Positions 34,720 through 53,537 of a DNA stretch of 64,000 bases are shown here, one piece after another; the stretch's first letter is position 1, and each line of letters begins with the position of its first letter. A program made the position numbers and the translations under genes. Origin of the DNA: Candidatus Hadarchaeota archaeon. GTDB taxonomy: Archaea > Hadarchaeota > Hadarchaeia > Hadarchaeales > Hadarchaeaceae. The stretch lies in assembly GCA_964514965.1 (NCBI GenBank), contig CAZETV010000002.1, forward strand, positions 37,547 through 101,546, written 5' to 3'. The notes beneath the pieces are model-generated. The model did not search any database. It saw nothing but the letters and a program-made list of their open reading frames with translations, and was not told where the DNA came from.

Positions 34720-36108
34720 TTGCCCGATTATAAAGAACCTCCGCGCAACGGCTTGACGGGAAAGATGGAGAAGAGACCGATACAGACAAATTTAGACGAT
34801 TTTTCTGAAGTTTATAAAGTTTATAAATTACTTTCACCGACTTCTCCCTCCCCTAAAATCGCATTTATTAATGATCGTAGAGAATGCAAAATGGGGGTGA
34901 CAGTGCAGCAGGGCATACTGTTAGTGCAACCAGAGTTCCCGATCGCTGGTAAGAGCAGGTGGCATAAATCTTTCCTGCCAATCGGGCTCCTAAAGCTCGC
35001 TTCATACTACCGGAAAAAAGGGCACAATGTGAAGTTGGTCTGTGGTAAAAAGAACCTAAAATTTCGACCTGATAAAGTCATGATAAGCTCGCTATTCACG
35101 TATTGGTCCAAATACGTCTGGGATTGCGTTAAACACTACAAACAGCTCTACCCAAATGCCAAGGTTGTGGTCGGTGGGATTTACGCCTCTCTAATGCCAG
35201 AACACTGCAAAAAGTCAGGGTGCGATGAAGTATTCGTTGGGGTGCACAAAAAAGCAGAGAAATGTGAACCTGCATACGATCTTCTTAAAAATAACTCTCA
35301 CCCCATAGACTATCAAATAATTCACACTTCTCGAGGCTGCGTCAGAAAGTGCAAGTTCTGTGGCGTATGGAAGATTGAGCCCGATTTTGAATACAAAAAA
35401 AGCATAAAAGATGAAATTCGAAGCAACCAACTGGTATTTTACGATAACAACCTTTTGGCAAACCCTTACATCGAGAACATTTTGGAGGAGATAGCACATA
35501 CCAAAGTTAACGGCAGGGTCGTGATCTGCGAGAGCCAATGTGGTTTCGATGGACGAATGCTAACCCCTAAGCTCGCAAGGCTAATCAAGGGGGCACATTT
35601 TCAATATCCCAAAATTGCGTGGGACGGGTCTTATTCAGAGCACAAAAACATCAAAAAACAGCTAGACATGCTTATAGATGCTGGCTATAGCCACAAAGAC
35701 GTTTTCGTGTTCATGATATACAACTGGGACCACGATTTCCGCGAGATGCAGAAAAAAAGATTGAAATGCTGGGGGTGGAAGGTGCAGATTTCTGATTGTC
35801 GATACAGACCATTGGAACAGACTTATGATAATTATGATCCGAGGAGAGTACAGACGAACGATGATTATTTTATACATCCAAAATGGACTGATTCTGAGGT
35901 TAAACAGTTTAGAAAAAACGTGCGTAGGCAAAATATTTGTGTTAGGCTGGGATTTTCATTTCATAGCAAAATCTTAGAGCAGAAAAAGCTCGGCAAAAAC
36001 ACGATAAAAAAATTACGAGACATGACACCAACTAAAGCTAAAAAAATGTTGCCAGATGTTTGGAACCCTGGTGAGATTACATTCCCTAAAATGGACTTAT
36101 GTACGTAG
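34720..36108 (+). CDS. B12-binding-domain radical SAM protein
   Basis: N-terminal Rossmann-like B12-binding region plus TSRGCVRKCKFCGV (Cx3Cx2C). AT-rich codon usage. The true start may be Met-58 (34891). Confidence 0.7.
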   Translation: MPDYKEPPRNGLTGKMEKRPIQTNLDDFSEVYKVYKLLSPTSPSPKIAFINDRRECKMGVTVQQGILLVQPEFPIAGKSRWHKSFLPIGLLKLASYYRKKGHNVKLVCGKKNLKFRPDKVMISSLFTYWSKYVWDCVKHYKQLYPNAKVVVGGIYASLMPEHCKKSGCDEVFVGVHKKAEKCEPAYDLLKNNSHPIDYQIIHTSRGCVRKCKFCGVWKIEPDFEYKKSIKDEIRSNQLVFYDNNLLANPYIENILEEIAHTKVNGRVVICESQCGFDGRMLTPKLARLIKGAHFQYPKIAWDGSYSEHKNIKKQLDMLIDAGYSHKDVFVFMIYNWDHDFREMQKKRLKCWGWKVQISDCRYRPLEQTYDNYDPRRVQTNDDYFIHPKWTDSEVKQFRKNVRRQNICVRLGFSFHSKILEQKKLGKNTIKKLRDMTPTKAKKMLPDVWNPGEITFPKMDLCT

Positions 36109-36109
36109 A

Positions 36110-36574
36110 TCATTTTTTCTTTACTTTCTTTGCTATCCCAATTAATTCCGTCTCTAATCTTTTACTAAAGCTACCTTTCCCACTAAAAACCTGATCTTTT
36201 AGAATTTTTATTCCGCCTGCAGCATATTCCTCGACTATTGAATACACTCTTTTTTTATCCAATAGCACTTCTAAATTACCTGCATCTTTTACAGCTACAG
36301 CGTTAATCAAAGCTTTTTCTGTATCGCTAAGGTATTCTGTCCTGATATATCCCGAGGGGTCCTTGTCTGTTATTTTGTGCTTTATTCCATTTTTGAATCC
36401 AACTACCATCGCTGCCAAAAATAAATGTTTTTTATTCTTGTTTCCAAATGGGCTATCTTTTTCTTCCAGCCTTGAAAAATGTTCTTTATCACTTTTTCTA
36501 ATGTAAATTATTGCTGGATCTTTACTTACCATATTTTCCCACCTGCGCTTTTGAGCCTGTTTTAAGTTCTTCAA
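36110..36574 (-). CDS. hypothetical protein, last gene of the candidate defence operon
   Basis: 154 aa, Lys-rich, no recognisable motif. Overlaps the upstream ATPase fragment by 53 nt. Confidence 0.35.
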   Translation of the reverse strand: MKNLKQAQKRRWENMVSKDPAIIYIRKSDKEHFSRLEEKDSPFGNKNKKHLFLAAMVVGFKNGIKHKITDKDPSGYIRTEYLSDTEKALINAVAVKDAGNLEVLLDKKRVYSIVEEYAAGGIKILKDQVFSGKGSFSKRLETELIGIAKKVKKK

Positions 36575-37121
36575 ATATTATTTTGTATTCTCCAATCAAA
36601 TTATCTGATAACTTTTTTCTGACGAATGGTGTATACTCGGTATCAGTCATTAACAGAATAACTTGCTTGTTTTTTAGATATTTGGGTAAATTTTTGCAAA
36701 TGTTTTCCCTTATTTCTCCAGAGATTCTACCCAGCGGGGTATCCATAACTATTGGGAAATCGAAACCAGAATATGCGCTCAAAGCATTTATGAATGATAA
36801 TGCCAACGCTTCCATTTCACCTCTGCTTAAGCTTCCTAATCCTTCGTGGTCTGATCTATGCGTGACGGAAATTTCATAATCATCGTTTATTTTTACATTT
36901 TTCCATTCATCTTTCTTCCAAATTAAATTGAAAAACGATTCTTTTGTGATTTGGTTAATTTTTTCTCTAGTGTCTTTCATAATGTTTTTTTTCACCTTAG
37001 TAGCCAATTCAACGGCTTCATCACAAAATGACACCACTTTGTTTAGCTCATCAAATTCTTTAGATCTTTCTAGTTCTTTATCCCGTTCTCTTCTGTAGGT
37101 CTCGAACTGACTTTCGGCCAT
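36522..37121 (-). CDS. DndD/SMC-like ABC ATPase, C-terminal half (signature + Walker B)
   Basis: LSRGEMEALALSF signature, FPIVMDTPLGRIS Walker B / D-loop as in DndD-type ATPases, and QVILLMTDTEY. Confidence 0.55.
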   Translation of the reverse strand: MAESQFETYRRERDKELERSKEFDELNKVVSFCDEAVELATKVKKNIMKDTREKINQITKESFFNLIWKKDEWKNVKINDDYEISVTHRSDHEGLGSLSRGEMEALALSFINALSAYSGFDFPIVMDTPLGRISGEIRENICKNLPKYLKNKQVILLMTDTEYTPFVRKKLSDNLIGEYKIIFEELKTGSKAQVGKYGK

Positions 37122-37156
37122 TTTAACTCGTGCCTCACGTTCACCGATATCTTCAC

Positions 37157-38482
37157 TTAATTTCGTGATTTCTGTATCAAGGTTTCCGTATCGTTTCTCC
37201 AGTATTTTAAATTTTTCTTCAATTTTTGAATCGACTTGTTCTTTAATTTTTTGCTTTTATTTTCATAGCCAGTTTCTAGTTTTTTGATTTCTCTTTCAAG
37301 TTTGATCATGCTTGTGTCAAAATTTTTAAGGTTATCGATGGATCGGGCTAAATCGGTTTTTAATTTAATCAAATCCGAACTAATGGCGGATATATCGCTT
37401 ATTTTTTTAAGAAGACTCTCAACTTTTTTTCTACAACTGATATTCTTTTTAGTTATGTCCGTCCCACAGATACAATTACCATCTTTAAGTAATTTTTCTA
37501 AATATTTTGGGTCTATATTTGGCGGTACATTTTCTTGGTCTTGTTCTCGAGTAATCTCTTTAATTGTGGATTCTATAGCAGGATAAGTTAGTAAATGCAG
37601 GGAAGAATCTACAAGAAAATCCGTCAATTCATCTCTCTTATCTTTTATTGTTTTTTCAAGATCTTTCAAATCACGTTCAAGTTCTTCCCTGGTTTCCTGT
37701 AAGTTCCTTATATTTGGCATTGACTTTAATTCTTCGGCTATTTCGTTTTTATCCTTAACTTTCCCATCTTTTATTTTACGGAATTTTTCCAAGTCGGCTT
37801 TATAGTTGTTTAAGGATTTCTCCCAAGTATCAATTTTCTCTTGAGCATCTGCAAGAGCGGGAGTTAACTTTTTTGATTTTCTTACAAATTCGTTTTGTAT
37901 TGCTCCCAAGTGCGATATCGCTTTTTCCAACACTTCCAATTGAGAAAGTTTAAAAATCTCCTTTTTTATCTCCTCACCAGATTTTTCTCTAAAATAACTT
38001 TCTAGCTTTTCACCATCAAAAAGAAAATAGTCTACAATACTCCCTGGTATCAACTGATTAGCAACATAAGTCGGATCAGAAACAAATTTCATGTCGTCTC
38101 CGATTTCTCGTAAAAGTTCAAATTTTTGTTTGTTGGGAATTTCTTTTACTTCGCCATTTTCTTCACAATATTTTGTGCTTCTCACAAAAATCGCTTTATT
38201 TCCTTCATTGTCTGTCATTACAATTTCCACTTTTACTTCACATGCTGATGGACTCTCCTTTAAAGAAATAGTATTGACCGTGGGCAAAGCTAAACTTTTT
38301 TTATTTAGGTGTAACTCCCTGCCATATAAGCACCAAGTAATAGCGTTCATTATGTTTGTTTTCCCTGCCCCGTTTCTACCTTCTAAGACGACTATGTTTT
38401 TTTTGCCGAATGGTGCAGGGAACTCTATTATTTCATTTGCATATTGCCTATAATTAATTAATTTAATTTTTTTAATTAACAT
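37157..38482 (-). CDS. DndD/SMC-like ABC ATPase, N-terminal half (Walker A + coiled coil)
   Basis: IKKIKLINYRQY...VLEGRNGAGKTNIMNAITWCLYG, then a long Lys/Glu-rich coiled coil. It is separated from the C-terminal half by 35 nt and a frame change. Confidence 0.6.
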   Translation of the reverse strand: MLIKKIKLINYRQYANEIIEFPAPFGKKNIVVLEGRNGAGKTNIMNAITWCLYGRELHLNKKSLALPTVNTISLKESPSACEVKVEIVMTDNEGNKAIFVRSTKYCEENGEVKEIPNKQKFELLREIGDDMKFVSDPTYVANQLIPGSIVDYFLFDGEKLESYFREKSGEEIKKEIFKLSQLEVLEKAISHLGAIQNEFVRKSKKLTPALADAQEKIDTWEKSLNNYKADLEKFRKIKDGKVKDKNEIAEELKSMPNIRNLQETREELERDLKDLEKTIKDKRDELTDFLVDSSLHLLTYPAIESTIKEITREQDQENVPPNIDPKYLEKLLKDGNCICGTDITKKNISCRKKVESLLKKISDISAISSDLIKLKTDLARSIDNLKNFDTSMIKLEREIKKLETGYENKSKKLKNKSIQKLKKNLKYWRNDTETLIQKSRN

Positions 38483-38485
38483 GAA

Positions 38486-38656
38486 TTATTTCACCGCCTT
38501 TTTTACAAGATTTTCGTACGTTTCACTATACCACCAACGATCTTCCTCGGAGTGGTCTGTTTCTAACATCAATATTTCTTTCAGAAATTTTTTGGTTTTT
38601 TCACTATAATTGCTTTTTTCAATTTCTTTGATGATTCTTTCGTTTAATATAGCCAT
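38486..38656 (-). CDS. small ORF (56 aa) between helicase and ATPase genes
   Basis: MAILNERIIKEIEKSNYSEKTKKFLKEILMLETDHSEEDRWWYSETYENLVKKAVK. Its stop abuts the ATPase ATG. Not in the ORF track (<60 aa). Confidence 0.3.
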   Translation of the reverse strand: MAILNERIIKEIEKSNYSEKTKKFLKEILMLETDHSEEDRWWYSETYENLVKKAVK

Positions 38657-38664
38657 GTGAACCA

Positions 38665-40761
38665 CTATAGGTTAAATTCTTTCCTTATTTTTTTAACTTT
38701 TTCAAGACACTTCGGGGTGTTGTTAGCATCATATGCGAACTCTTCGTATCTCTTTAGCTCTTTTATCAGTATCTTCCTTTCCAATTCAAAAAAATCTGGT
38801 TCGAAAGAACGTTGCGAAGAGGGCAAAACAATAATGTCGTAGAGTGTGGCCTTGTCCTTTCCCGGAAAACGTCTTAAAAGCCTCCCTCTTCTTTGAATGA
38901 ATTCTCTGGGATTACCCGAGCTCGAGAGCAATATGCCTGTTCTGGCGGGTGGAACATCCACTCCTTCGTCTAAACATTTCATTGCAACTAAAATCTGATA
39001 ATCGCCATCGGCAAATTTTCGGAGCAAAATTTCTCGTTGGGCAACGTTTTCGACCGCTGTAAACTTGTGTTGTAAAATATCTCTGTCGTTTAAAATTCTT
39101 TGAACTCTCTTTATCTGTTTTGGCGAACAATAAACAAAGCAATGTCTGGCACCGCCACCGATCTTGTCTAATATTTTTTCAAAAACAACGTATTTGTTTT
39201 GAGCGTTTTTTACGGTCTCTTGACGTTTTATACATAACAAATTAAAAAGTTCCTTTCTCTCCTGGTTAGACTTGCATGCGTAATATTGTCGAGCAATTTT
39301 CTTAGTTTCAGATTGATAGAGGTAAAACTCTTCGTCAGTCATCTCGACGAAATAGGGTTCATATTCGTATGGTGTGAGATAAGTTTCTCCGGTTTTTGGA
39401 TTTACAGTTGTGATGGCATCTTTTATAGAGAAAACTGATACTATATCTCCGAAATACTCAAAAAGTTTTTTGCTTCCAGGTTCATCAAAATATCTTTTAG
39501 GTGTTGCACTTAACCCCAACCTGAATTCATATCGGTCTAACAAACCTTTTTGTCTCTCTGGTGCCCCGAGGGTATGAACTTCGTCGCCAATTAAAAATAC
39601 TTTTGCGCTAGTTTCATTTATTATTTCAGTAAAATCATTACTAGAAATGGTATTTGGGGTAGTTAAAATTATTATTTTTTCACTAATGTCATTTTCTATG
39701 TCCCGCAAGTAGTCAACCAGTTTATTTTTCCAACCTGGATTGCTACTATCAGCGATTACGATAAGCCAATGAATGTCAAATTTTATTATTTCATTTTCCC
39801 ATTGTTTCAGCAAATGTTTGGTGGGTGAAGTAATGACAATGACAAGCTTTTTTTCTGATTCAGACATTTTCTTCAAACATCCCAACGCAGCAAACGTTTT
39901 CCCAGAACCTGTAGCCATTTCAAAAATCCCTTTCTTACCGTTTTCTAACCAATTAGCGATAGCACTCTCTTGATGAGTCCATAACTTGATTGCTTTTTTT
40001 CTTATCCATTCTTTCTTTATCAACCATTTGTCCAGATTCAAAACTTCAACATTGTCTGGAGCTATTTTAATAAGCTTTTCTTTTACGCCGGTGGGGACAT
40101 CGATAACTTTTGTTCTTCTTGCCTGTCCATTCCAGAATTTTTCAAATTTTTTGATATCTGTATCAAGATATTCTTTTTCAGTTTCTTTCCAACTACAAAA
40201 TACTTTAAACTCTTCTATATGCCTCGTCCATCCATAAGCGCTTTCGTTATCAGAACCGCTAAACGATATTCGGTTCCCTTCTACATCTTCTAATATACCG
40301 ACCTTCTGATGAAACAATCCTTCTTTTTCGATAGATTCTTCATCAAGAGGTAGCCCGTCCTCATCATAAACGATTGCTATTTTAATTTCTAGTTTCTTTT
40401 TGGCAATCATCCACCCCAGTGCGCACACATGGTCTTCCACGAATTTATCTTCTAAATTTTCCAATTCTTCAAGCATCATTTTTTCTATCACTTTCTCAGG
40501 AGTTTCATGAGCTTCTCTAATAACTTCAACATCGGATTTTCGTAGTTTGGCGCTTGTAACTAAATACATGAATCCACCATTGGAAATCAATTTAGAAATT
40601 CCTCTCGCGGCAACAGCAAGAGCGCTTGAAGAGAAAAATCCAGCTAACCTTTTATAAGTTACTGATTGGGATAATGCAAGTATGTAAAAGTCATTTAGAA
40701 TATCGTCAATGTCGGAGTCGTAAGCTTTTTTTAGCTTTATACCCTTCAAGGTCATGTTCAC
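38665..40761 (-). CDS. PLD-family (HKD-like) nuclease domain fused to SF2 ResIII/DEAH-type helicase
   Basis: N-terminus has FHQKVGILED...SFSGSDNES (HxK...GSxN). Then ATGSGKTFAA (motif I), LIGDEVH (motif II) and QRRGRLLRR (motif VI). GGAGG SD lies 8 nt upstream of the ATG. Confidence 0.7.
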   Translation of the reverse strand: MNMTLKGIKLKKAYDSDIDDILNDFYILALSQSVTYKRLAGFFSSSALAVAARGISKLISNGGFMYLVTSAKLRKSDVEVIREAHETPEKVIEKMMLEELENLEDKFVEDHVCALGWMIAKKKLEIKIAIVYDEDGLPLDEESIEKEGLFHQKVGILEDVEGNRISFSGSDNESAYGWTRHIEEFKVFCSWKETEKEYLDTDIKKFEKFWNGQARRTKVIDVPTGVKEKLIKIAPDNVEVLNLDKWLIKKEWIRKKAIKLWTHQESAIANWLENGKKGIFEMATGSGKTFAALGCLKKMSESEKKLVIVITSPTKHLLKQWENEIIKFDIHWLIVIADSSNPGWKNKLVDYLRDIENDISEKIIILTTPNTISSNDFTEIINETSAKVFLIGDEVHTLGAPERQKGLLDRYEFRLGLSATPKRYFDEPGSKKLFEYFGDIVSVFSIKDAITTVNPKTGETYLTPYEYEPYFVEMTDEEFYLYQSETKKIARQYYACKSNQERKELFNLLCIKRQETVKNAQNKYVVFEKILDKIGGGARHCFVYCSPKQIKRVQRILNDRDILQHKFTAVENVAQREILLRKFADGDYQILVAMKCLDEGVDVPPARTGILLSSSGNPREFIQRRGRLLRRFPGKDKATLYDIIVLPSSQRSFEPDFFELERKILIKELKRYEEFAYDANNTPKCLEKVKKIRKEFNL

Positions 40762-40975
40762 GCCTCCAATTAAACTAACGACCCACTTTAATTACTTTTT
40801 TAGTCATTTAACTCTATTTATCTTCCTAATTCCATCCCAAGTAGTCCGCCTCGGTCTCGAAAACTCCTCAAAATTAGGACAAAGCCGACCCCGTTTTCTT
40901 GGCTACCAAGATTAAAAAACCAAATATTGCTATCGGCTGCCCTAGCGGTGCTTCTTCACCGGGTAGATCTCCTAC

Positions 40976-44510: not shown

Positions 44511-45152
44511 ATGCACGAAAACATCAGGCTCGGAGTGACCCGCCTCCAATCGGCTCTCGACTGCCCCCTCTGCTTCTGGCTCTCTCGGCGTATTGGCTCG
44601 CCTCCCTCCATCTTCGCCGGCATCCCCGCCCAGATTGACTCCGTGATCAAAAATTACATGAAGCAATTCATCGGGAACTCGGATTTGCCTGAGTGGTTCC
44701 CCGTGCGCGGCACCTTCATGGACGCCAGCCAGACCCTGAGAGCAACCGACCCGACCACCTGCATCACCGTGGTGGGAAAGCTCGATGCTTTGGTGAAGAC
44801 GGCAGACGAAGAATATCACATCATCGACTACAAAACTGGCAGGCCCCCCAAGGAGGTTCCAAATTACTACCAAATGCAGCTCGACGGCTACGCCTACCTC
44901 CTCGAGCAAAACGATTTCCGGCCCGTGGTGGGCGGCACGTTGCTTTACTTCACGCCCGAGCATGGGGACCTCTCGGAGGGGCGCTTCCCGTTCAAAATCA
45001 CCGCTGTGCGGGCCGAGGTTGACCCGGGCCGCATCCCGCCCGTTCTCGCGCTGGCCAGGGAAATCCTCGACTTGCAGACCCCGCCGCCCAGAAGCGAGGA
45101 CTGCGAGATGTGCATGTGGCGGGAGCAGGTCGAGCACACTCTATCAGAATGA
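44511..45152 (+). CDS. Cas4-like PD-(D/E)xK nuclease with 4-Cys cluster (stand-alone)
   Basis: N-terminal CPLCFW, core HIIDYKTG (D-x-K-T) and C-terminal DCEMCMW are the DUF83/Cas4 hallmarks. Confidence 0.55.
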   Translation: MHENIRLGVTRLQSALDCPLCFWLSRRIGSPPSIFAGIPAQIDSVIKNYMKQFIGNSDLPEWFPVRGTFMDASQTLRATDPTTCITVVGKLDALVKTADEEYHIIDYKTGRPPKEVPNYYQMQLDGYAYLLEQNDFRPVVGGTLLYFTPEHGDLSEGRFPFKITAVRAEVDPGRIPPVLALAREILDLQTPPPRSEDCEMCMWREQVEHTLSE

Positions 45153-45205: not shown

Positions 45206-46060
45206 CTAGAAAGGTGCGAATACGCCCATAAACACGAACCACGCCAAAATTGTTTTTGCGGCTAAACTGAGAATAACGTAAAATCGTTCGCCATAGAGGT
45301 AATCTCTCCAACGTCCGACACCTTTGTACTGTAAGACCATGTTGATCGCGAAGATATTGAACAGAATGAAATAGATGAAAGGGATGAAGTATACGAATGT
45401 TGGAATTTCTCCTCCCACAGAGTTAACAGCAGCAACGAAATAGGCGAAAATCACGACCCATGGAACCCAACCTGAAATCGTCCCCAAGATAAATGGCGAC
45501 CAATTAGTCTTTTTTGTTTTCTGATTGAGAATTTCCATCAAATACCCGAACATTATCATCATCGCGTTTAAGACGAAAATCATGATCAACGACCAAAAAT
45601 CCCAGACACCCACCAACAGTGCAATCAGTAATATCATTATTGAGCTTGAGAAGGCGTACTCGTACCAGCGGTAAGGATTCATCCCTTTTTTCAAATTTTC
45701 ATTGTAACGGTTATTTACCAGATACGAAATCGAAAAGTGCGCTATGGCAGAAATTAGGAGGAAGGAAGCGAGAATCGCCCCCAAATATTCGAAAGTAAAC
45801 AAAATTTGAGGATTCGGTACCACCTCGAATAGGATTGGTTCCGTAGTAATTATTTTTATATCAAGATAGAACGTGTATACATTTCTCGAAAACGTCAGAA
45901 GAAGACCCAACAGCAACATTGCTATCCCCTGAACTAAATGCAAAGAACCTGCGATGGTGTTGAAGCGTTTCAGATAGGTAAAAGTTATAGGTGAGCTGGC
46001 GATTATTTTCTGCCTTTCTTTATAATCCATTGGTGCCCCCATAGTACTAAATATGTCCAA
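45206..46060 (-). CDS. heliorhodopsin (7-TM retinal protein)
   Basis: Seven TM helices with FNTIAGSLHLVQ, NPYRWYEYAFSSSIMILLIA, NAMMIMFGYLME, GWVPWVVIF and QYKGVGRWRDYLYGERFYVILSLAAKTILAW. The Schiff-base Lys sits in the last helix, matching the heliorhodopsin family pattern. Confidence 0.7.
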   Translation of the reverse strand: MDIFSTMGAPMDYKERQKIIASSPITFTYLKRFNTIAGSLHLVQGIAMLLLGLLLTFSRNVYTFYLDIKIITTEPILFEVVPNPQILFTFEYLGAILASFLLISAIAHFSISYLVNNRYNENLKKGMNPYRWYEYAFSSSIMILLIALLVGVWDFWSLIMIFVLNAMMIMFGYLMEILNQKTKKTNWSPFILGTISGWVPWVVIFAYFVAAVNSVGGEIPTFVYFIPFIYFILFNIFAINMVLQYKGVGRWRDYLYGERFYVILSLAAKTILAWFVFMGVFAPF

Positions 46061-46225: not shown

Positions 46226-46930
46226 TTACGAAATCAGCGGAATTATCTCGTTTGTCACGTAATCCAGAAATTCATTCAGCTCAGCCCGGCTGAACATCGT
46301 CACCACGCAATCCCGGGTGATACCCACGACCAAGCCACGCTTTTGCAGTTCAAGAACCGTGTACCAAATCTTTCCGTGTTCAAGATAATCGCGGTAGAGC
46401 TTGGTGTCCGCGAGCGCTGATCCTGCGAGCGCTAGTTTCCCTACACTTGGGATATCAACTTCGTCGAACCAGATGAGCTTCGTGGCGCGGGGGTTTGATT
46501 CGTGAAGCTCCTTTAAAGTTTCATGGGTAATCTTTGTCTCAACTATCCCCCCCGTCTTGATGAAAAGAATCTCGCTGAGTTTGTTCGCCACGTAGTTCGT
46601 CAGCAGCTTCTTCACCCCCCTAGCTTTTGAAGGCGCGAGCACGACAAGGAAAGTCCGATCTTTAAATCGCTTGATCCAGAAGGGGGTTTCTTCCGTGACC
46701 GGAGTTTCAACCAGTCCGCGCTTGTAATAACGGCTGAGCACGAAGTCCTTGCTAAAAATTCCCGCCAGCAAGTCGGCCTCTATCTTCAAATCCAAAATTT
46801 CCATCGCCAGTTTGAGCTGCTGCCCCTTTTGCTCGTACGGTACTTCTTCCCGGAAGTCCTTGAGCTTCTGGGCTATCAGCGCCAGCTCGATTGGCTCCTT
46901 GAGCTCGAATATCTTTGCGGCGAGGACCAT
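46226..46930 (-). CDS. hypothetical protein divergent from SMC-like operon
   Basis: 234 aa, no motif recognised. Confidence 0.35.
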   Translation of the reverse strand: MVLAAKIFELKEPIELALIAQKLKDFREEVPYEQKGQQLKLAMEILDLKIEADLLAGIFSKDFVLSRYYKRGLVETPVTEETPFWIKRFKDRTFLVVLAPSKARGVKKLLTNYVANKLSEILFIKTGGIVETKITHETLKELHESNPRATKLIWFDEVDIPSVGKLALAGSALADTKLYRDYLEHGKIWYTVLELQKRGLVVGITRDCVVTMFSRAELNEFLDYVTNEIIPLIS

Positions 46931-47000
46931 ATGTCACCCTAAAGACTTAAACACTGTGAGGGTTTAAAATTGAGGACGTATAAAATTTAAACTGGTACTT

Positions 47001-48914
47001 ATGTCTGCAAGCGCCATAATCCAAGAGATAATTCTAGAAAATTTCATGAGTTACGAATATTCTAGAATCCCATTCAATCCGGGGCTCAACCTAGTTTGCG
47101 GTCCAAACGGCGCTGGAAAGTCATCAATTCTGCTCGCTCTAGCTGTGGCCCTTGGGCAGACCTACACCGAGCGCTCCCGTAAGCTCAGCGACCTCATCCG
47201 CCGGGGTAAGAATCTGGGACGAGTGAGCGTGGTGTTCGACAATTCCCCCCACAATGGAAGGAGGCCCATCCCGAGCGTGAACTCTGATAGTCTAGTCCTT
47301 TCGCGCTATCTGAACCGCGACGGAACCTACTGGCATGAGGCCAATAACCGCACGATAACGAAGGGCGAGGTGCTGCGGCTGCTCGGGCGGCTCTCGATAA
47401 ACCCCGACAACATGCTCATCATCATGCACCAGAACATGATTGATGTGCTCGGGGCGATAGATGCACACGAGCGGCTAAAAATCATCGAGGAAGCGGTCGG
47501 GCTGCGCGAGTACCGGGAGCATATCCTCGAGGCGCGTGAGAAGCTTTCGCACACCTTGAGCGAGGAGGAGTCGATTCGCAGCCTGCTCGAGAAAGCTCAA
47601 GAAACGTTGCGCTACTGGGAGGGCGAGTACGGGAGATTTCAGCGGAAGCAAGAGCTCGGAGAGCGGAAGCAGGAGCTAGAGCTGGAATACGCTTGGGCGA
47701 AATGTATCCGGCAGGAAGAGGCGGTCGGCAACCTTCAATCTAAACTCGACGGGCTAAAGTCAGAGCTGAGTGAGATCGAGGGCGAGCTGGAGCAAAACTC
47801 GAAACGTGGCGGGGAGCTTGAAAAAAAGTTGGGGGAACTTGGGTTTGAACTCGATGCTGCCTATCAAAAGCTCATCACCCAAGAACGGGCACAAGCCGAA
47901 GCGGGGGCACGCGCCAAGCTCATTGAGAGTTTCAACACATCCATACGCTCGGTGGCCGAAGTTGGCTTGAGTGAATTGCTCGCACACCTCGAGGTCGAAC
48001 TGGGGCGGGCGAAAGAAACCCTTAAAGAAGCCGGCGAGCGGGCGAATGAGGTGAAATCTGAACTCGTCAGGGGCAAGGGCGAACTCGAGAAAACCCAAGA
48101 AACTTACGTTAACTCCCGTATCCACACCGCCGTGCTGGGGTTCCGCCGCGAACTCCTAGAACGTGACATCTCAAGCGCTCAGTCCGAACTCAGGCGAGCA
48201 CGCCGCGAGCTGGAACAACTGGAGAATGATGCCCAGCAATTGGGGACGCGGGTCGAGACCGAAAGAAAGCCCCAGGAAGTGCTCGATGAACTCAAACTCA
48301 CCAACATCCAACTAGCCAGCTTAGCTGATGTCTCACCCGATGTCGAGAGGATGTATCTAAACTACAAGGGTACACTCAAGGAACTCGAGGCAAAGGCCGA
48401 GGTAGCTGCAGCCAACCGTAAGCGGGCGCTCGATGAGCTGGAACTCAGAAAGCAGCGCTGGACCGATGAAACAAACAACCTTATACGTCAAGTTAAGGTG
48501 AACTACATCGAAATCCTGAAGCGAGTTAACGCGAGCGGTGATGTGATTCTGACGAACGCTCAAGATATCGACGAAGCAGGGATAGAGCTGTTCGTTGGTT
48601 TCAGGGGGTCCGAACCTCAGGTGCTGAACGCCTACACACAGAGCGGAGGGGAACGAACGACTTCCCTAATGTGTTTTCTGCTGGCGCTGCAGCAACAAAT
48701 TCAATCCCCCATCCGTGCAATCGACGAGTTTGAAGCCCATCTGGACCCACACAATCGGGAGGCAATCCTGCAGGGGATTATAGAGTTCATGAAGGGCGGG
48801 GAGACGCAGTACATCGTGATCACCCCCGGACAGCTTTTCAACGTGAAAGGGATACCAAACGTGATCACCGTTCAAAACATCGCGGGCTCATCTCAGGTGA
48901 AGGTGGCTGCTTGA
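47001..48914 (+). CDS. short SMC-like ATPase (about 640 aa)
   Basis: N-terminal FMSYEYSRIPF..LNLVCGPNGAGKSSILLALAVALG, a long coiled coil, a C-terminal QSGGERTTSLMCFLLALQ signature and IRAIDEFEAHLD Walker B. Confidence 0.7.
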   Translation: MSASAIIQEIILENFMSYEYSRIPFNPGLNLVCGPNGAGKSSILLALAVALGQTYTERSRKLSDLIRRGKNLGRVSVVFDNSPHNGRRPIPSVNSDSLVLSRYLNRDGTYWHEANNRTITKGEVLRLLGRLSINPDNMLIIMHQNMIDVLGAIDAHERLKIIEEAVGLREYREHILEAREKLSHTLSEEESIRSLLEKAQETLRYWEGEYGRFQRKQELGERKQELELEYAWAKCIRQEEAVGNLQSKLDGLKSELSEIEGELEQNSKRGGELEKKLGELGFELDAAYQKLITQERAQAEAGARAKLIESFNTSIRSVAEVGLSELLAHLEVELGRAKETLKEAGERANEVKSELVRGKGELEKTQETYVNSRIHTAVLGFRRELLERDISSAQSELRRARRELEQLENDAQQLGTRVETERKPQEVLDELKLTNIQLASLADVSPDVERMYLNYKGTLKELEAKAEVAAANRKRALDELELRKQRWTDETNNLIRQVKVNYIEILKRVNASGDVILTNAQDIDEAGIELFVGFRGSEPQVLNAYTQSGGERTTSLMCFLLALQQQIQSPIRAIDEFEAHLDPHNREAILQGIIEFMKGGETQYIVITPGQLFNVKGIPNVITVQNIAGSSQVKVAA

Positions 48915-48915
48915 A

Positions 48916-49707
48916 ATGCCGGGCGAACGCAAAGAACTGATGTTACGGATAATCGACCTCTGCGACACTGTGCGAAAGCGAGGAGTCGACCCCTTCGACG
49001 TTGAGGTTCGAGAGTTTTTTGACCGACTGCGGGAACTCCTCCCAAATCTGAAAAAGAATGAGGACCTTTATCTTGACATCCAAGCGGTGCTCGGGCTTGC
49101 CGATGTGGTGTTCCAGCAGGGCGAGTGGATCAAGCACAAGTCGTCGATGCTCTACCTCGATCCCCTGCTGATTATGCTCAAGCTTCATGCCCTCCCGGCG
49201 CGAGAGCTTGCCGATGTCTTCGCGCGTTCATGGCACCCCATTGTGCAGATGGAGACACTCTCGCCCCACGGCATTTCCGAGGCCAAGCAGTACTGGACTA
49301 ATCTACCGAGCCTTGAAGAACGCTGGCGTGGGCTCGACACGACTGAGGTGTTTACTGGGGAGATAGCCCGCCGAGAGCTCGTTCGCATGGGCATCCTTTC
49401 AGAGGAAGACTTCGCGGCGGTGCTTGATCAGACTTGGCGCGAGCTCAAGGAAGCGGTGGGGGAGCGGGGCGAAATCTCTTACTGGGATTTCATCCACAAC
49501 CAGAGCTTCGAGGAAACCGTCAGGCGGGCATGGCTCGTGAGCTTCTTGGTGAGCTATGGCTACGCCACTCTCGAACTCAAGCCCCTTGAGGAGGAAATTT
49601 TGCTGAGACCGTTGCCCAAACCGCGAGAACTCGAACGTGTCACAACCTTCTCTGTCCCTATCGCTATTTCCCGTGACGAGTGGCTCAGGAGGCTAAAGGG
49701 TGGCTGA
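48916..49707 (+). CDS. ScpA/kleisin-like protein
   Basis: Its TGA overlaps the SMC-like stop. The N-terminal helical region (LRIIDLCDTVRKRGVDPFDVEV..FFDRL) resembles ScpA. Confidence 0.45.
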   Translation: MPGERKELMLRIIDLCDTVRKRGVDPFDVEVREFFDRLRELLPNLKKNEDLYLDIQAVLGLADVVFQQGEWIKHKSSMLYLDPLLIMLKLHALPARELADVFARSWHPIVQMETLSPHGISEAKQYWTNLPSLEERWRGLDTTEVFTGEIARRELVRMGILSEEDFAAVLDQTWRELKEAVGERGEISYWDFIHNQSFEETVRRAWLVSFLVSYGYATLELKPLEEEILLRPLPKPRELERVTTFSVPIAISRDEWLRRLKGG

Positions 49708-50311
49708 GGAACCAGATGTCGCCGAGCTACGGGAAAAGCTGGCGCGGGCTGCACAGCTCCTGCTCTACAAGCACCACATGCAACCGGGAGCCAAGGAATG
49801 GGAGCTCAGGCGCACTCTGGGCAGGGACTACGAGCAGATTCTGAAGCTTCTCGACGCCGAATTCGATAAACTGGGGCTAAAAGTAAAGCGAGTGAGCGAG
49901 GGCGAGACCAGCTCGGAATCGGACAGATATTATGTCACGCTCCGAGGGCATCCGAGAGTGACCGAGACCCGAACCTTCGGGTGGCGGATTGATGACATGG
50001 CAATGCTCACCGTCGCGCTCGCCCACATCCTATCAAAACAGGGAAAAGCCCCCCTCAAAGAGGTCGAGCGAATGTTGGAGGAAAAATTCCCGCGCTGGCG
50101 CATCGAGTCGACTTTAGACCGGTTCATCCGGCGGGGCTACCTGTCGGAGGATGATGAAGGGTTGCTCTACGTGGGGTGGCGCGCTCGGGCGGAAATCGAC
50201 CAGCGAACTCTGCTCGGGTTGTTGTTGGGGAAAGAAGAGAAGCCTAACGAAGCTGAGGCCGAGCCGAAAGTCGAAACCAAGAAAGTAGAAGAAACTAAAG
50301 GAGATAGCTAA
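49700..50311 (+). CDS. ScpB/kite-like winged-helix protein
   Basis: Two predicted wH repeats and an acidic C-terminus. Overlaps the ScpA-like stop. Confidence 0.4.
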   Translation: MAEEPDVAELREKLARAAQLLLYKHHMQPGAKEWELRRTLGRDYEQILKLLDAEFDKLGLKVKRVSEGETSSESDRYYVTLRGHPRVTETRTFGWRIDDMAMLTVALAHILSKQGKAPLKEVERMLEEKFPRWRIESTLDRFIRRGYLSEDDEGLLYVGWRARAEIDQRTLLGLLLGKEEKPNEAEAEPKVETKKVEETKGDS

Positions 50312-50356: not shown

Positions 50357-50638
50357 ATGAAGCAAAAATGTGAAGATTGGGAAGGCGAAATGCCGCCCGG
50401 ATTGGCTCCGAGGACCGCAGTTACAATTATGGTAGGCATCGGCTGGCTGATATTCCTCATATTATTCTTGGCATTTTACGCAGGAGGATTTAACATCTGG
50501 CAGAACATAGCAATCATGCTCGTGTCAATTCTCGTTGTGTGCGCGATACTCGGTCCGATGTGGGCTTATTGGGGAATTAAAACTGGCCGCGCTGCAGTTC
50601 GGAAGAGGAGAACGAGAAAGAGAAGAGTAAGGAAATAG
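50357..50638 (+). CDS. small membrane protein with poly-basic C-terminus
   Basis: Two or three TM helices, then RKRRTRKRRVRK. Confidence 0.35.
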   Translation: MKQKCEDWEGEMPPGLAPRTAVTIMVGIGWLIFLILFLAFYAGGFNIWQNIAIMLVSILVVCAILGPMWAYWGIKTGRAAVRKRRTRKRRVRK

Positions 50639-50660: not shown

Positions 50661-53537
50661 TTACGCCAACCTGAATCGCCTGAACAAAGCTTCCCGCTCT
50701 TTTCGAAGCAGGAGCTCGAAAAATTTGCTTGACATCTTCTGCTCCTTTGCTAATATCTCCCCCGCGGCCGCTTGTGTGATTCCCTTACCAGCCAATGTTA
50801 CAGCCGCGAGCTTTCCATATTGGCCGATAAGTTTAGCACTCCCCTGCAGTTCTTTCCAAGTCGGACTTTTCCTCCCTCGCTCCAAGAGTTCGATCGCCCG
50901 CCGGACCTCTTCAGCCGGCTTTTCGACCATCCCCAGCATCGTCGACCCACAGCGCGGACACTTCGGTTTTTCATCGAGTTCGTGGAGCTGGAGTTCCTTG
51001 ACATGATCCTTGCATTGAGTGCACGCGAAGGTGCGGGCCTCGCTGAGCAGCCGCGCTTTGGTCGAGGCTATCGCCAGCAGCCTGAGGCGCTCGGGCATCA
51101 TCGGCTCAAGAGCTAGGTAGCGCTTGCGCCACAACGCCAAGTTGGACACGGGGGTTGGCTCTTCCCGCTCCCCCAACGAGACCAGTTCTATTTCACCACT
51201 TCGAATACTTTCGAGCACCTCGAGCGTGCGCTTCAGATCGAGGTCCTTGCGCACGACTTCCTTGAATGTTTCTTCAAATGCTGGCGTTCCTTTGAGGCCG
51301 CGCATTAGCTTATCGAGGGTCACGCTTGTGAGCTCTGCCTCGCGCTCGAGTACGCCCATCCGCCGGGCTATCTGCGCAAGGCGCCACCGGAAGAACCGGC
51401 TCTCCTCGATTATCACGCGGAGGTCCTTCTTGAGGTCCGTGCTGAACCCGCCGCGCAATATCTCGATCACACCTTTTGGCTCGAGTGTCTCCGAGTGGAG
51501 CAGGATCCGGTAGGGGTCAATTGAGGTTGCGGTTGTCTCCCCGAGCTCGGTCGAGGCCTTGTAGGCGAGCAGCCGGGCAAGCGTTCGGTTGACAAGTGTT
51601 CCAAAGCAAGCGTTGACGATACAGAGCTCCTTAACTTTTTCTACAGTTACCCGCCGATCCGTGGGCACGGGCAACACAGCTTTGACCTGCTTGTGGGTGT
51701 CGGAGATGGCGGGTTCCATCGTGTCACGCGAAACGCCGTACCGCCCCGCAAGCTCTCGGACGATTTCATCAAATTCTTTGCCTGCACGTGAAAACTCCTC
51801 AAGTTGGGCCCGGAGCTTGCCGGCCTCCTGCGCGACTGAGTAGGGCACAGGGATTTCTTCGCCTATCCAAGTCGGAATCGCCCCGAGAGGGTCGTTGTCG
51901 GGCTTCACGTAGACTTTGTCCTTGAAGACCTGGAGCACCCGCCAGATCTCACCTCCTATCACAAATTTTACCCCGGGTTCGCCATACTCCGCAACGAAAG
52001 ACTCGTCCAAAATCCCGACTGGCTGGTTACGCTCGTCGTTGATTACGAGGTACTGCCGGACTTCAGGAATCATCGAGAGGTTTCCGAAATAATAGTTGAA
52101 AACCCGTTCCGTCGCTCGCGGGCGTGCAAACTCTTTCCCATCCTCGGAGACCAGCGCTAACCGCTTTTCTAAACTCTGCGCGAACTGGAGCACCTCGAGC
52201 AAGTCCTCCCGCTTGAGGTTCCTGAACGGGTAAGCGCGCCGGAAAATTTCGTAAACATCATCAACGCTTACTCTCCGCTGTACCACCATGATCGAAACCA
52301 GCGCATGGAGAAGCACGTCGAGGGGCTTCTCGGGAACGATAACGGGCTCAAGCTCTTGCCGATGAGACCGGTCGGCTATCACGATTGACTCGAGTGCGTC
52401 TTCCGGGTCTTGAACCATGATTACCCCTTTGGCCACCCCGCCTATCCTGTGGCCGCTCCGCCCGACTCGCTGGAGCAAGCGAGTGGCCTGGCGAGGAGAA
52501 TTGTACTGGATAACTAGGTCTATTCGCCCGATGTCCAACCCTAGCTCCATGCTCGAAGTGCAGACGATCCCTTTGAGCTCACCCTGTTTCAGCCCTCGCT
52601 CGGACCGGAGCCTCGAGAAGCCCGACAGTGACCCATGGTGGACGCTGAGAGGAAAACGAATATCCCAGAGGCGGAAGCGACTCGCCAAGATTTCAGCGGT
52701 TGCGCGTGTGTTGGTGAAGACGAGCGTGGAACCGTGCTCTTCGATTAACTTTCGCATCGTGCGTAAACGGGCAGCAACTGGAGAGTAAGTGTAGAGTTCT
52801 GATGCCAGCCGTTCGTCGCGCTTGGTCGCTGCGGGGTAGAGGATATCCAGTTCCAACTCACGAACGACGCTAACATCTACAACCTCGCATGATCTATCCA
52901 CACCTGCCAGAAATCTGGCGACCTCCTGCGGGGAACCAATTGTGGCGGAAAGCCCGATGAGCTGGAATTCTCCACCTTTGAGCTTGCGCAGCCTTTCGAG
53001 TGTGAGGGCAAGCTGTACCCCGCGCTTGTTGTCAGCCAGCTCGTGGACCTCGTCAATAATCACCCACCGCACGCTTCGCAGGTGCTGACTCAGTCTCCGG
53101 CCCATCAGGAATATCTGAAGGGTCTCAGGAGTGGTGATCAAAACATCTGGTGGGATTAATGCCTGTGCTCGCCGCTCACGCGCCGCCGTGTCCCCGTGAC
53201 GGACTGATATCCGTAGGTCGAGAGCACGACACCACCACTCCAGCCGCTCAAGCATGTCACGGTTGAGGGCCCGAAGTGGAGTGATGTAGATTACCTTTAT
53301 CCCACGTTCGCGCGTCTGTGATACCAAGAGTTGGTGTAGCACCGGTAAGAAAGAGGCTTCCGTCTTTCCCGTACCCGCTGGAGCAATCAGCAGAACATTT
53401 TTGCCTTCAAGGATTTTGGGAATTGCTCTGCTTTGTGGGTGGGTAGGCTCGGTGAATCCCCGCTCGGCCAGCAACTTTCGGATTGGTCTGGCCAGTGAAT
53501 CAAACACGTTGGATTCGTCCGACGTTTTAAACCCCAT
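50661..53537 (-). CDS. lhr: Lhr-like large DEAD/DEAH-box helicase
   Basis: 958 aa. APAGTGKTEASFLP (motif I), DEVH and QRVGRSGH (motif VI), plus a C-terminal DEAD/H-associated region. Confidence 0.85.
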   Translation of the reverse strand: MGFKTSDESNVFDSLARPIRKLLAERGFTEPTHPQSRAIPKILEGKNVLLIAPAGTGKTEASFLPVLHQLLVSQTRERGIKVIYITPLRALNRDMLERLEWWCRALDLRISVRHGDTAARERRAQALIPPDVLITTPETLQIFLMGRRLSQHLRSVRWVIIDEVHELADNKRGVQLALTLERLRKLKGGEFQLIGLSATIGSPQEVARFLAGVDRSCEVVDVSVVRELELDILYPAATKRDERLASELYTYSPVAARLRTMRKLIEEHGSTLVFTNTRATAEILASRFRLWDIRFPLSVHHGSLSGFSRLRSERGLKQGELKGIVCTSSMELGLDIGRIDLVIQYNSPRQATRLLQRVGRSGHRIGGVAKGVIMVQDPEDALESIVIADRSHRQELEPVIVPEKPLDVLLHALVSIMVVQRRVSVDDVYEIFRRAYPFRNLKREDLLEVLQFAQSLEKRLALVSEDGKEFARPRATERVFNYYFGNLSMIPEVRQYLVINDERNQPVGILDESFVAEYGEPGVKFVIGGEIWRVLQVFKDKVYVKPDNDPLGAIPTWIGEEIPVPYSVAQEAGKLRAQLEEFSRAGKEFDEIVRELAGRYGVSRDTMEPAISDTHKQVKAVLPVPTDRRVTVEKVKELCIVNACFGTLVNRTLARLLAYKASTELGETTATSIDPYRILLHSETLEPKGVIEILRGGFSTDLKKDLRVIIEESRFFRWRLAQIARRMGVLEREAELTSVTLDKLMRGLKGTPAFEETFKEVVRKDLDLKRTLEVLESIRSGEIELVSLGEREEPTPVSNLALWRKRYLALEPMMPERLRLLAIASTKARLLSEARTFACTQCKDHVKELQLHELDEKPKCPRCGSTMLGMVEKPAEEVRRAIELLERGRKSPTWKELQGSAKLIGQYGKLAAVTLAGKGITQAAAGEILAKEQKMSSKFFELLLRKEREALFRRFRLA

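Follow-up and report, generated by a model that had tools for sequence, protein, structure and literature searches.

The locus and its genes

The genome of a Hadarchaeota (Hadesarchaea) archaeon contains a compact operon of three genes, encoding a structural maintenance of chromosomes (SMC)-like ATPase, a kleisin, and a kite protein, next to a fourth gene that is transcribed divergently from it. This report addresses the operon as a likely archaeal SMC5/6-related complex, built around a short ATPase with no predicted hinge. The DNA analyzed, referred to here as the window, is a stretch of 64,000 nucleotides (contig CAZETV010000002.1 of assembly GCA_964514965.1, positions 37,547 to 101,546 of the forward strand). 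The operon and the divergent gene lie within positions 46226-50311 of the window, and all coordinates given without a locus name are window positions. The genes and features are as follows.

46226-46930, minus strand: 234-residue orphan protein, here called U234, divergently transcribed and belonging to a conserved family
46931-47000, no strand: divergent intergenic region of 70 base pairs, A/T-rich, with TATA-like boxes
47001-48914, plus strand: SMC5-like ATPase of 637 residues, with the N-terminal head at residues 1-168 and the C-terminal head at residues 509-637, short arms, and no hinge predicted
47100-47123, plus strand: Walker A motif GPNGAGKS, residues 34-41, read from the sequence and invariant across the family
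47505-48524, plus strand: antiparallel coiled-coil arm predicted by AlphaFold, N-terminal helix 169-318 and C-terminal helix 324-508
47955-47969, plus strand: apex turn predicted by AlphaFold, residues 319-323
48243-48338, plus strand: break in the C-terminal helix, residues 415-446, read as an SMC joint from the AlphaFold model, conservation, and fold match
48639-48734, plus strand: signature QSGGER (residues 547-552) and Walker B IRAIDEFE (residues 571-578), read from the sequence and invariant across the family
48916-49707, plus strand: kleisin of 263 residues, assigned to the Nse4 type, with a C-terminal winged-helix region at about residues 136-259
49700-50311, plus strand: kite of 203 residues, weakly assigned to the Nse1/Nse3 (MAGE) type, with a GTG start and an acidic, lysine-rich C-terminal tail

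All four open reading frames are present at the coordinates of the initial annotation, which had described a 637-residue SMC-like ATPase in a translationally coupled triad, with a 234-residue gene diverging from the same intergenic region. Both descriptions are borne out. The ATPase and kleisin genes meet as TGA-A-ATG, leaving a gap of 1 nucleotide, and the kleisin and kite genes overlap by 8 nucleotides (GTGGCTGA), with AGGAGG located 7 nucleotides upstream. As judged from these junctions, the genes for SMC, kleisin, and kite are translationally coupled. The spacer of 70 base pairs holds the boxes TTTAAAA at 46964-46970 and TATAAAATTTAAA at 46979-46991, which face both ways, and it can be regarded as a putative divergent promoter.

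A short ATPase with a predicted hairpin arm

The ATPase motifs are intact, including Walker A, the Q-loop (Q144), the signature, and Walker B, and the protein is predicted to be catalytically active. Pfam SMC_N covers residues 7-608 (3.5e-33). The initial annotation had seen neither a hinge nor a zinc hook in a protein about half the size of canonical Smc, and this description stands: the 637-residue sequence has no Pfam SMC_hinge match and no CxxC motif or zinc hook, and its only three cysteines are scattered (33, 235, and 558). The top NCBIfam matches are SMC_prok_A and SMC_prok_B, with 166 bits against a cutoff of 729 for SMC_prok_A (TIGR02169) and 143 bits against a cutoff of 567 for TIGR02168. 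The ASRP model NF045487 gives 68 bits (cutoff 300) and the Rad50 models 60-68 bits (cutoffs 700-1000). Identity as ASRP/ClsN or Rad50 was rejected on account of these scores, which are far under the cutoffs, and the lack of a zinc hook.

An AlphaFold model of the ATPase monomer was built from an alignment of 25 family members and has a mean predicted local distance difference test score (pLDDT) of 76. It shows a helix at residues 169-318, a five-residue turn at 319-323, and a return helix at 324-508 with breaks at 415-423 and 441-446. Apart from the apex, where the pLDDT is about 61, the fold is predicted with confidence. The model depicts a simple hairpin arm without any hinge domain. The arm has about 150 residues per strand, or about 22 nm at 0.15 nm per residue, which is roughly half of a canonical arm. 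In a fold search the best match was the head-coiled coil-joint structure of Pyrococcus Smc (5xei), followed by Smc6, Smc5, and cohesin Smc3. Because 5xei includes the joint, the helix break at 415-446 is read as the SMC joint. In the predicted structure the distal part of the coiled coil is thus missing together with the hinge, and what remains is the head with the adjoining stretch of coiled coil, joint included.

Conservation is the norm for both hinge domains and zinc hooks. The apex of this ATPase is its least conserved segment and the richest in insertions and deletions. Within Hadarchaeota, the frequency of the commonest residue is 0.45-0.59 at the apex versus 0.80-0.85 in the heads, and in the wider family it is 0.22-0.29 versus 0.60-0.64. 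Insertions in the apex region double the number of alignment columns. The joint-like break has a conservation of 0.81 within Hadarchaeota.

The affinity of the head was assessed by sequence search against the PDB. With the whole protein, yeast Smc5 ranks first (2.4e-27), followed by Pyrococcus Smc (3.1e-25) and then Smc6. When the C-terminal half of the head is searched, human SMC5 (1.5e-16) and yeast Smc5 (3e-14) are matched far better than Pyrococcus Smc (3e-9), a difference of 5-7 orders of magnitude towards SMC5 over archaeal Smc. The C-terminal head and SMC5 have in common a QY[IF]xITP motif, located at what we take to be the H-loop. By these comparisons the head of the ATPase appears closest to Smc5. 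The closest homologues of the whole ATPase are from Hadarchaeota, with 57-100% identity; after one identical protein, those at 57-92% come from organisms named Hadesarchaea, Hadarchaeaceae, or Hadarchaeum. The source annotation of homologues is "chromosome segregation ATPase".

The kleisin and kite partners

The initial annotation had proposed ScpA-like and ScpB-like partners for the ATPase. The kleisin and kite part of this proposal holds, and the naming does not: the relatives found are Nse4 for the kleisin and MAGE/Nse1 for the kite. The ScpA and ScpB names were rejected for want of Pfam or NCBIfam support. ScpA is not matched by the kleisin (Pfam, E up to 1) or by any of 22 kleisins of the family (E up to 0.1), and ScpB is likewise not matched by the kite (Pfam, E up to 1) or by any of 20-22 kites (E up to 0.1).

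Taken alone, the 263-residue protein matches Nse4_C at 4e-4 and 21 bits, below the Pfam cutoff of 26 bits. Across the family, Nse4_C is matched by 21 of the 22 kleisins, at best with 1.1e-6, and it is already precomputed on three database homologues. The family profile searched against the PDB finds human EID3/NSE4B (3.7e-5) and yeast Nse4 (3e-3) and nothing else, and the alignment with EID3/Nse4 falls on the C-terminal winged-helix region. As judged by these profiles, the kleisin is of the Nse4 type and matches no other kleisin family.

The 203-residue protein alone matches MAGE at 6e-3 and SMC_Nse1 at 0.12, both below cutoff. Among the members of its family MAGE is matched in 16 of 20 and Nse1 in 4, all below cutoff, and in a broader set MAGE in 10 of 22 and Nse1 in 2, with a best value of 2e-3. 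The broader profile has as its top PDB match 7dg2_C, a "MAGE domain-containing protein" (E 0.07), in register from the N terminus. The size and position of the protein also agree with the Nse1/Nse3 type, to which it can be weakly assigned.

Distribution of the short form

A scan with the kleisin profile, using one genome per species, retrieved 202 loci, of which the best 80 were analyzed. These comprise about 42 from Hadarchaeota, about 35 from Bathyarchaeia, one from Geothermarchaeales, and one contig binned as a bacterium. Every locus with room for the neighboring genes has a short SMC before the kleisin and a kite after it. The SMC measures 608-640 residues in Hadarchaeota (median 635, 36 complete loci) and 651-686 residues in Bathyarchaeia (median 681, 25 complete loci), and the gap between SMC and kleisin genes is mostly -14 to +5 nucleotides over the 61 complete loci. 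Given that gene order and sizes recur in 80 of the 80 loci analyzed, the locus is not a chance arrangement.

Additionally, about 48 full-length short representatives of 548-685 residues were recovered when a library of 1.84 billion cluster representatives (50% identity) was searched exhaustively with HMMER. In alignment A4 they cover the query from end to end, with 26-55% identity. Named homologues are also found in Nitrososphaeria and MSBL1. No relatives were found with the kleisin in viral contigs (IMG/VR) or plasmids (PLSDB). The distribution suggests chromosomal and vertical inheritance.

Three loci depart from the common pattern. The contig binned as "Krumholzibacteriaceae bacterium" (DATKLC010000037.1, locus L043) has a short SMC-kleisin-kite operon in which the kleisin has 45% identity; misbinning of an archaeal contig is the probable cause, and transfer is less likely. 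In a complete Bathyarchaeota chromosome (CP070683.1, locus L052, 3921-5964) the SMC is split into at least 3 open reading frames and the kleisin and kite are intact, which reflects either a pseudogene or frameshift errors of assembly. In Bathyarchaeota BA2 the short SMC is located 2.5 kilobases (kb) from the kleisin (locus L057, 1384-3429 and 5965-6780), which suggests an insertion between the two.

Relatives with other apices

One relative of the ATPase, P0419, has 982 residues and a central globular segment whose best Pfam match is SMC_hinge (4e-3; 17.9 bits versus a cutoff of 22.5), over positions 4-107 of the 116-position model. Its gene is followed by a homologous kleisin (8e-27) and then a kite (9e-26). 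The locus is L085 (4001-8248 and 10586-10949), and an Lhr helicase is located 3.6 kb downstream of the operon. This protein probably represents the ancestral full-length state of the complex.

Three proteins of Bathyarchaeia (P0373, P0383, and P0388; 1016-1047 residues) have 45-48% identity to the query on both sides of a central insert of about 460 residues. In P0373, with 1047 residues, the query segments 16-319 and 371-637 align at 45-47% identity. Exactly in the middle of the three proteins is a C-[DE]-[KR]-C motif (residues 541, 530, and 521, respectively), which by its sequence looks like a zinc hook, here on an SMC5-like head. The one CxxC locus inspected (L083, 2105-5248) is a solo gene, without kleisin or kite.

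Neighbor-joining trees place the CxxC forms in one monophyletic group (96 of 100 replicates) and give a short-form clade excluding them in 0 of 100, with the hinge-bearing P0419 outside the short clade. These trees are rough, being built by distance methods with some distances saturated, and the group placed as exact sister to the CxxC forms has 42-51% support. Tentatively, the hinge and distal arm may have been lost once in an SMC5/6-related ancestor, with a later re-extension to a hook in one paralogue of Bathyarchaeia.

A more distant short SMC-like protein of 628 residues (P0437; L086, 4001-8796), with 33% identity, has a different gene neighborhood, consisting of a 241-residue open reading frame, a KaiC/RecA-type ATPase, and further on a weak kite-like open reading frame (5e-8).

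The divergent gene and other neighbors

U234 belongs to a well-conserved family that looks α/β in composition. It has no match in Pfam, NCBIfam, PADLOC, or the PDB, using family profiles A5 and A7 against the PDB and member-wise scans, and by hhalign it is unrelated to the kite and kleisin profiles. A Toprim match in 1 of 17 members (E 0.11) was treated as noise, and a single-sequence structure model was unusable (pLDDT 37.6).

In 27 genome loci the gene diverges from the SMC gene on its upstream side; three of these loci are from Bathyarchaeia, with about 41% identity and different other neighbors. The same arrangement is seen in 16 of 16 metagenome loci at 71% identity or above. Four Hadarchaeota operons have no U234 within 6 kb, and 51 Bathyarchaeota homologues with 62-67% identity have neither an SMC nor any other conserved neighbor. 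The family and the operon thus occur together at the level of the phylum, and their linkage is only conditional. The 51 unlinked homologues weaken the idea of an obligatory fourth subunit. U234 is possibly an accessory or co-regulated factor, a candidate and not an established subunit, and in Hadarchaeota it may be a new accessory subunit. In the Bathyarchaeia loci no other conserved fourth gene was found; by their sequences, the neighbors there look like unrelated membrane, metabolic, and surface proteins.

Directly after the kite is a gene for a 93-residue membrane protein with two helices and an Arg/Lys-rich tail (50357-50638, plus strand), and in a few close relatives (L003, L004, L006, and L007) a homologue is placed likewise. 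It is followed by a 958-residue Lhr-type helicase (50661-53537, minus strand; DEAD, Helicase_C, WH_Lhr, and DEAD_assoc domains), convergent with the operon. A repair helicase of this type is located downstream of the operon in 13 Hadarchaeota loci.

On the other side, a heliorhodopsin gene adjoins the U234 gene (45206-46060, minus strand; Pfam 2e-91, NCBIfam HeR 6e-100). Hadarchaeota are known mainly from subsurface habitats, and a heliorhodopsin is unexpected there. At 44511-45152 (plus strand), 1 kb upstream of the heliorhodopsin gene, is a 213-residue protein of the PD-(D/E)XK nuclease superfamily. Further away, positions 36000-40800 form an island of low guanine-cytosine (GC) content, 33-35% versus about 50%. 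It encodes a 441-residue SMC_N/AAA_23 ATPase of the ATP-binding cassette (ABC) class (37157-38482, minus strand) and a 698-residue ResIII/SNF2-type helicase (38665-40761, minus strand), and looks like a horizontally acquired defense-type module.

Interpretation

Archaeal SMC homologues named "SMC5/6-related", mostly from TACK archaea, were described by Yoshinaga and Inagaki in 2021 (PMC8665677). Van Hooff et al. (2024/25) reported SMC5/6-related SMCs in operons with Nse4-related kleisins and Nse1/3-like kites (10.1101/2024.01.07.573240). Table S3 of the latter lists two operons for Hadesarchaea WYZ-LMO6, a condensin-type SMC-kleisin-ScpB operon (QNVD01000245.1, genes 6-5-4) and an SMC5/6-related operon (QNVD01000244.1, genes 4-5-6), where QNVD01000244.1_4 is the SMC5/6-related SMC and the kite is Nse1,3-related (10.1101/2024.01.07.573240). 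The contig QNVD01000244.1 is our locus L038, and each of the four genes described here has an orthologue on it. What is already in print therefore includes the gene families, their operon, and its presence alongside a condensin-type complex. Short or hingeless archaeal forms are not mentioned in the main texts or supplements of either work (PMC8665677; 10.1101/2024.01.07.573240), and a wider literature search on hingeless archaeal SMCs found nothing. The short hingeless architecture is apparently an undescribed, widespread variant of the published complex.

We consider it likely that the operon encodes an archaeal SMC5/6-related complex, present as a second complex beside a condensin-type Smc-ScpAB, with a short hingeless ATPase, and that it functions as a clamp or tether in genome maintenance. 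Next to the gene content, families, hairpin, and conservation set out above, the subunit contacts, stoichiometry, DNA clamping, and biological role are what we infer. Two ATPase heads would engage around two ATP. The kleisin would reach from one ATPase, bound at the neck by the kleisin N-terminal domain, to the second, bound at the cap by the C-terminal winged helix, and would carry a kite dimer on its middle. DNA would be clamped on the engaged heads, within the compartment formed by heads and kleisin. Without a conserved apex module, a second compartment on the hinge side is unlikely, and since there is no such module the dimer is probably held by the heads, kleisin, and kites, possibly also by zipped arms. 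Such a complex would operate as an ATP-gated DNA clamp or tether in repair or in the handling of replication junctions, as Smc5/6 does, and would not be a long-armed loop extruder. The genome-maintenance role is suggested by the SMC5/6 kinship, by the coexistence with condensin, and weakly by the Lhr neighborhood.

A fuller picture, which we find plausible while holding it short of probable, is that of a natural hingeless SMC5/6-type holocomplex in Hadarchaeota and Bathyarchaeia, which has kept kleisin and kite, has lost the hinge and distal arms, and acts as an ATP-gated clamp with the head/kleisin compartment as its only compartment. U234 might then be an accessory, and an offshoot in Bathyarchaeia would have re-lengthened the arm, gained the CxxC motif, and lost the linkage to kleisin and kite.

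Several points weigh against the SMC5/6-related interpretation. The model is of a monomer, with an apex pLDDT of about 61, and apex-to-apex or arm-to-arm dimer contacts are possible. The kleisin match is limited to the C-terminal half, and the kite matches are sub-threshold throughout (at best 2e-3 in Pfam and 0.07 in the PDB). The Lhr neighborhood is possibly just inherited gene order. Coexistence with condensin is documented in one other Hadarchaeota genome, from a preprint table, and no experimental data on archaeal SMC5/6-related complexes were found in the literature searched. Additionally, the PADLOC model of Lamassu LmuB has an end-to-end match to the ATPase (6e-19).

The operon could instead be the housekeeping condensin, a shortened Smc-ScpAB that organizes and segregates the chromosome, as the homologue annotation "chromosome segregation ATPase" and the top rank of SMC_prok_A and SMC_prok_B in NCBIfam would have it. 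The operon order is that of smc-scpA-scpB, and there is no other smc within the window of 64 kb. We hold this to be quite unlikely, because end-to-end matches to ordinary SMC and ScpAB profiles, a check proposed in the initial annotation, were not seen. The ATPase score is less than a quarter of the SMC_prok_A cutoff, the partners give no ScpA or ScpB matches, and the heads are nearer to Smc5. Moreover, WYZ-LMO6 has its separate condensin-type operon, and ScpB-like kites occur in 5 of 5 Hadarchaeota genomes surveyed (10.1101/2024.01.07.573240). The question whether a canonical smc exists elsewhere is thereby answered at the level of the phylum. Between a condensin paralogue and a Wadjet/MukBEF-like complex, the two options first proposed, the idea of a second SMC complex is upheld by WYZ-LMO6, which has both, and the Wadjet/MukBEF option finds no support in PADLOC. 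A tether of broken DNA in the manner of Rad50 or RecN, in which coiled-coil dimerization bridges DNA ends and the small proteins are regulators rather than kleisin and kite, would explain the arm length and missing hinge, which resemble RecN and short Rad50-like proteins. Rad50 models do match the N-terminal head, and an Lhr helicase and a PD-(D/E)XK nuclease are nearby. It is nevertheless distinctly improbable given the lack of a zinc hook, of a conserved apex, and of an Mre11-type nuclease in the operon. Rad50 is scored much lower than SMC and Smc5, the partners match Nse4 and MAGE, and the same partners accompany the hinge-bearing relative P0419.

An SMC-type defense system against plasmids or viruses, Wadjet- or Lamassu-like and with U234 as a novel effector, is an unlikely explanation, and a defense role is less likely than genome maintenance. 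The LmuB alignment (residues 7-580) and matches to other defense ABC ATPases speak for it. The best 25 of the 86 PADLOC matches of the ATPase are mad3, LmuB, AriA, PtuA, GajA, NsnB, HEC-02A, and mad8, and JetC is not among these. PADLOC gave 0 matches for the kleisin, the kite, and U234. The Lamassu LmuACB structure appears at rank 50 of the fold matches, and the short hingeless arm does recall LmuB and Rad50, with an uncharacterized conserved gene attached; even so, the locus has no nuclease or significant Toprim domain, there is no LmuA or LmuC among the neighbors, and the heads score higher with Smc5 than with any defense ATPase. Also in favor, the low-GC island with its ABC ATPase and helicase lies 6 kb upstream. 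Defense islands are patchy, unlike the present operon, whose order and sequence are conserved over dozens of species in two phyla, whose kleisin is absent from IMG/VR and PLSDB, and from which U234 is unlinked in most Bathyarchaeota. Eukaryotic SMC5/6 restricts extrachromosomal DNA (PMC10586767), which would fit a defense role as well. Finally, an artefact, whether through truncation to a pseudogene, wrong assembly, or fusion of a fragment, has next to no chance of being the explanation. A split SMC does exist at L052, but 61 intact orthologues with tightly clustered lengths, conserved catalytic motifs, the full-length alignments, and a fold that is confident outside the apex stand against it, and the conservation data already refute this reading.

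Smc-ScpAB, MukBEF/Wadjet, cohesin, condensin, and Smc5/6 all have long arms closed by a hinge, and both the hinge and the arm length have a part in current models of how DNA is entrapped and loops are extruded. The present complex is widespread and evidently functional with arms of about 22 nm and no predicted hinge. If the fuller picture above is true, a kleisin-binding SMC would be able to do without the hinge in at least one of its conserved cellular functions. The complex would offer a compact, probably thermostable minimal system, with which one could test which activities, such as clamping, topological entrapment, and translocation, need a hinge. Additionally, the lineages regarded as nearest to SMC5/6 contain forms with a hinge, with a hook, and with neither, so that head-only trees and ancestral-state arguments hide large architectural changes. 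This gives the archaeal ancestry of eukaryotic SMC5/6 an aspect not reported before.

Comparison with known systems

The operon logic of SMC, kleisin, and kite is common to the present locus and Smc-ScpAB, and the fold of ABC head, neck, and joint resembles Pyrococcus Smc. The differences are the predicted absence of a hinge, the low score against full-length models, and partners that are not ScpA and ScpB. The globular hinge and strands of about 300-350 residues that mark an SMC proper are not found in this ATPase. MukBEF, MksBEF, and Wadjet JetABCD also encode SMC, kleisin, and kite together, and these systems have a hinge. In contrast with Wadjet, there is no JetD/Toprim nuclease here and no JetA or JetB match, and the operon was not found on mobile elements (kleisin searches of IMG/VR and PLSDB).

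Rad50, RecN, Lamassu LmuB, and archaeal ASRP/ClsN resemble the ATPase in having a short antiparallel coiled coil without a globular hinge. Rad50 and ASRP/ClsN are defined by a zinc hook, whereas the ATPase has none, and unlike in the Lamassu and Rad50 systems there is no LmuA, LmuC, or Mre11 partner. To our knowledge, none of these four is paired with an Nse4-type kleisin and a kite in one operon.

With eukaryotic Smc5/6 the complex has in common an Smc5-like head with the QYxxITP motif, a kleisin winged helix similar to that of Nse4/EID3, and, weakly, a kite similar to MAGE/Nse1. Eukaryotic Smc5/6 is built on a heterodimer of Smc5 and Smc6, whereas the single ATPase gene here presumably gives a homodimer, and a single kite gene stands in place of Nse1 plus Nse3. 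A RING domain, an Nse2 SUMO ligase, and Nse5/6 are absent, unlike in eukaryotic Smc5/6, and the arms are about half as long and have no predicted hinge.

The closest likeness is to the archaeal SMC5/6-related complexes, which share with the present locus the operon order and, weakly in the case of the kite, the three gene families. The papers on these complexes treat their SMCs as ordinary, hinge-dimerizing proteins, whereas the ATPase here has 637 residues and a predicted bare hairpin apex, and the divergent 234-residue gene is absent from the published descriptions. Of the features that mark this kind of complex, an Nse4-type kleisin, an SMC5-like head, and a single operon are found at the present locus, and an Nse1/Nse3-type kite is weakly matched.

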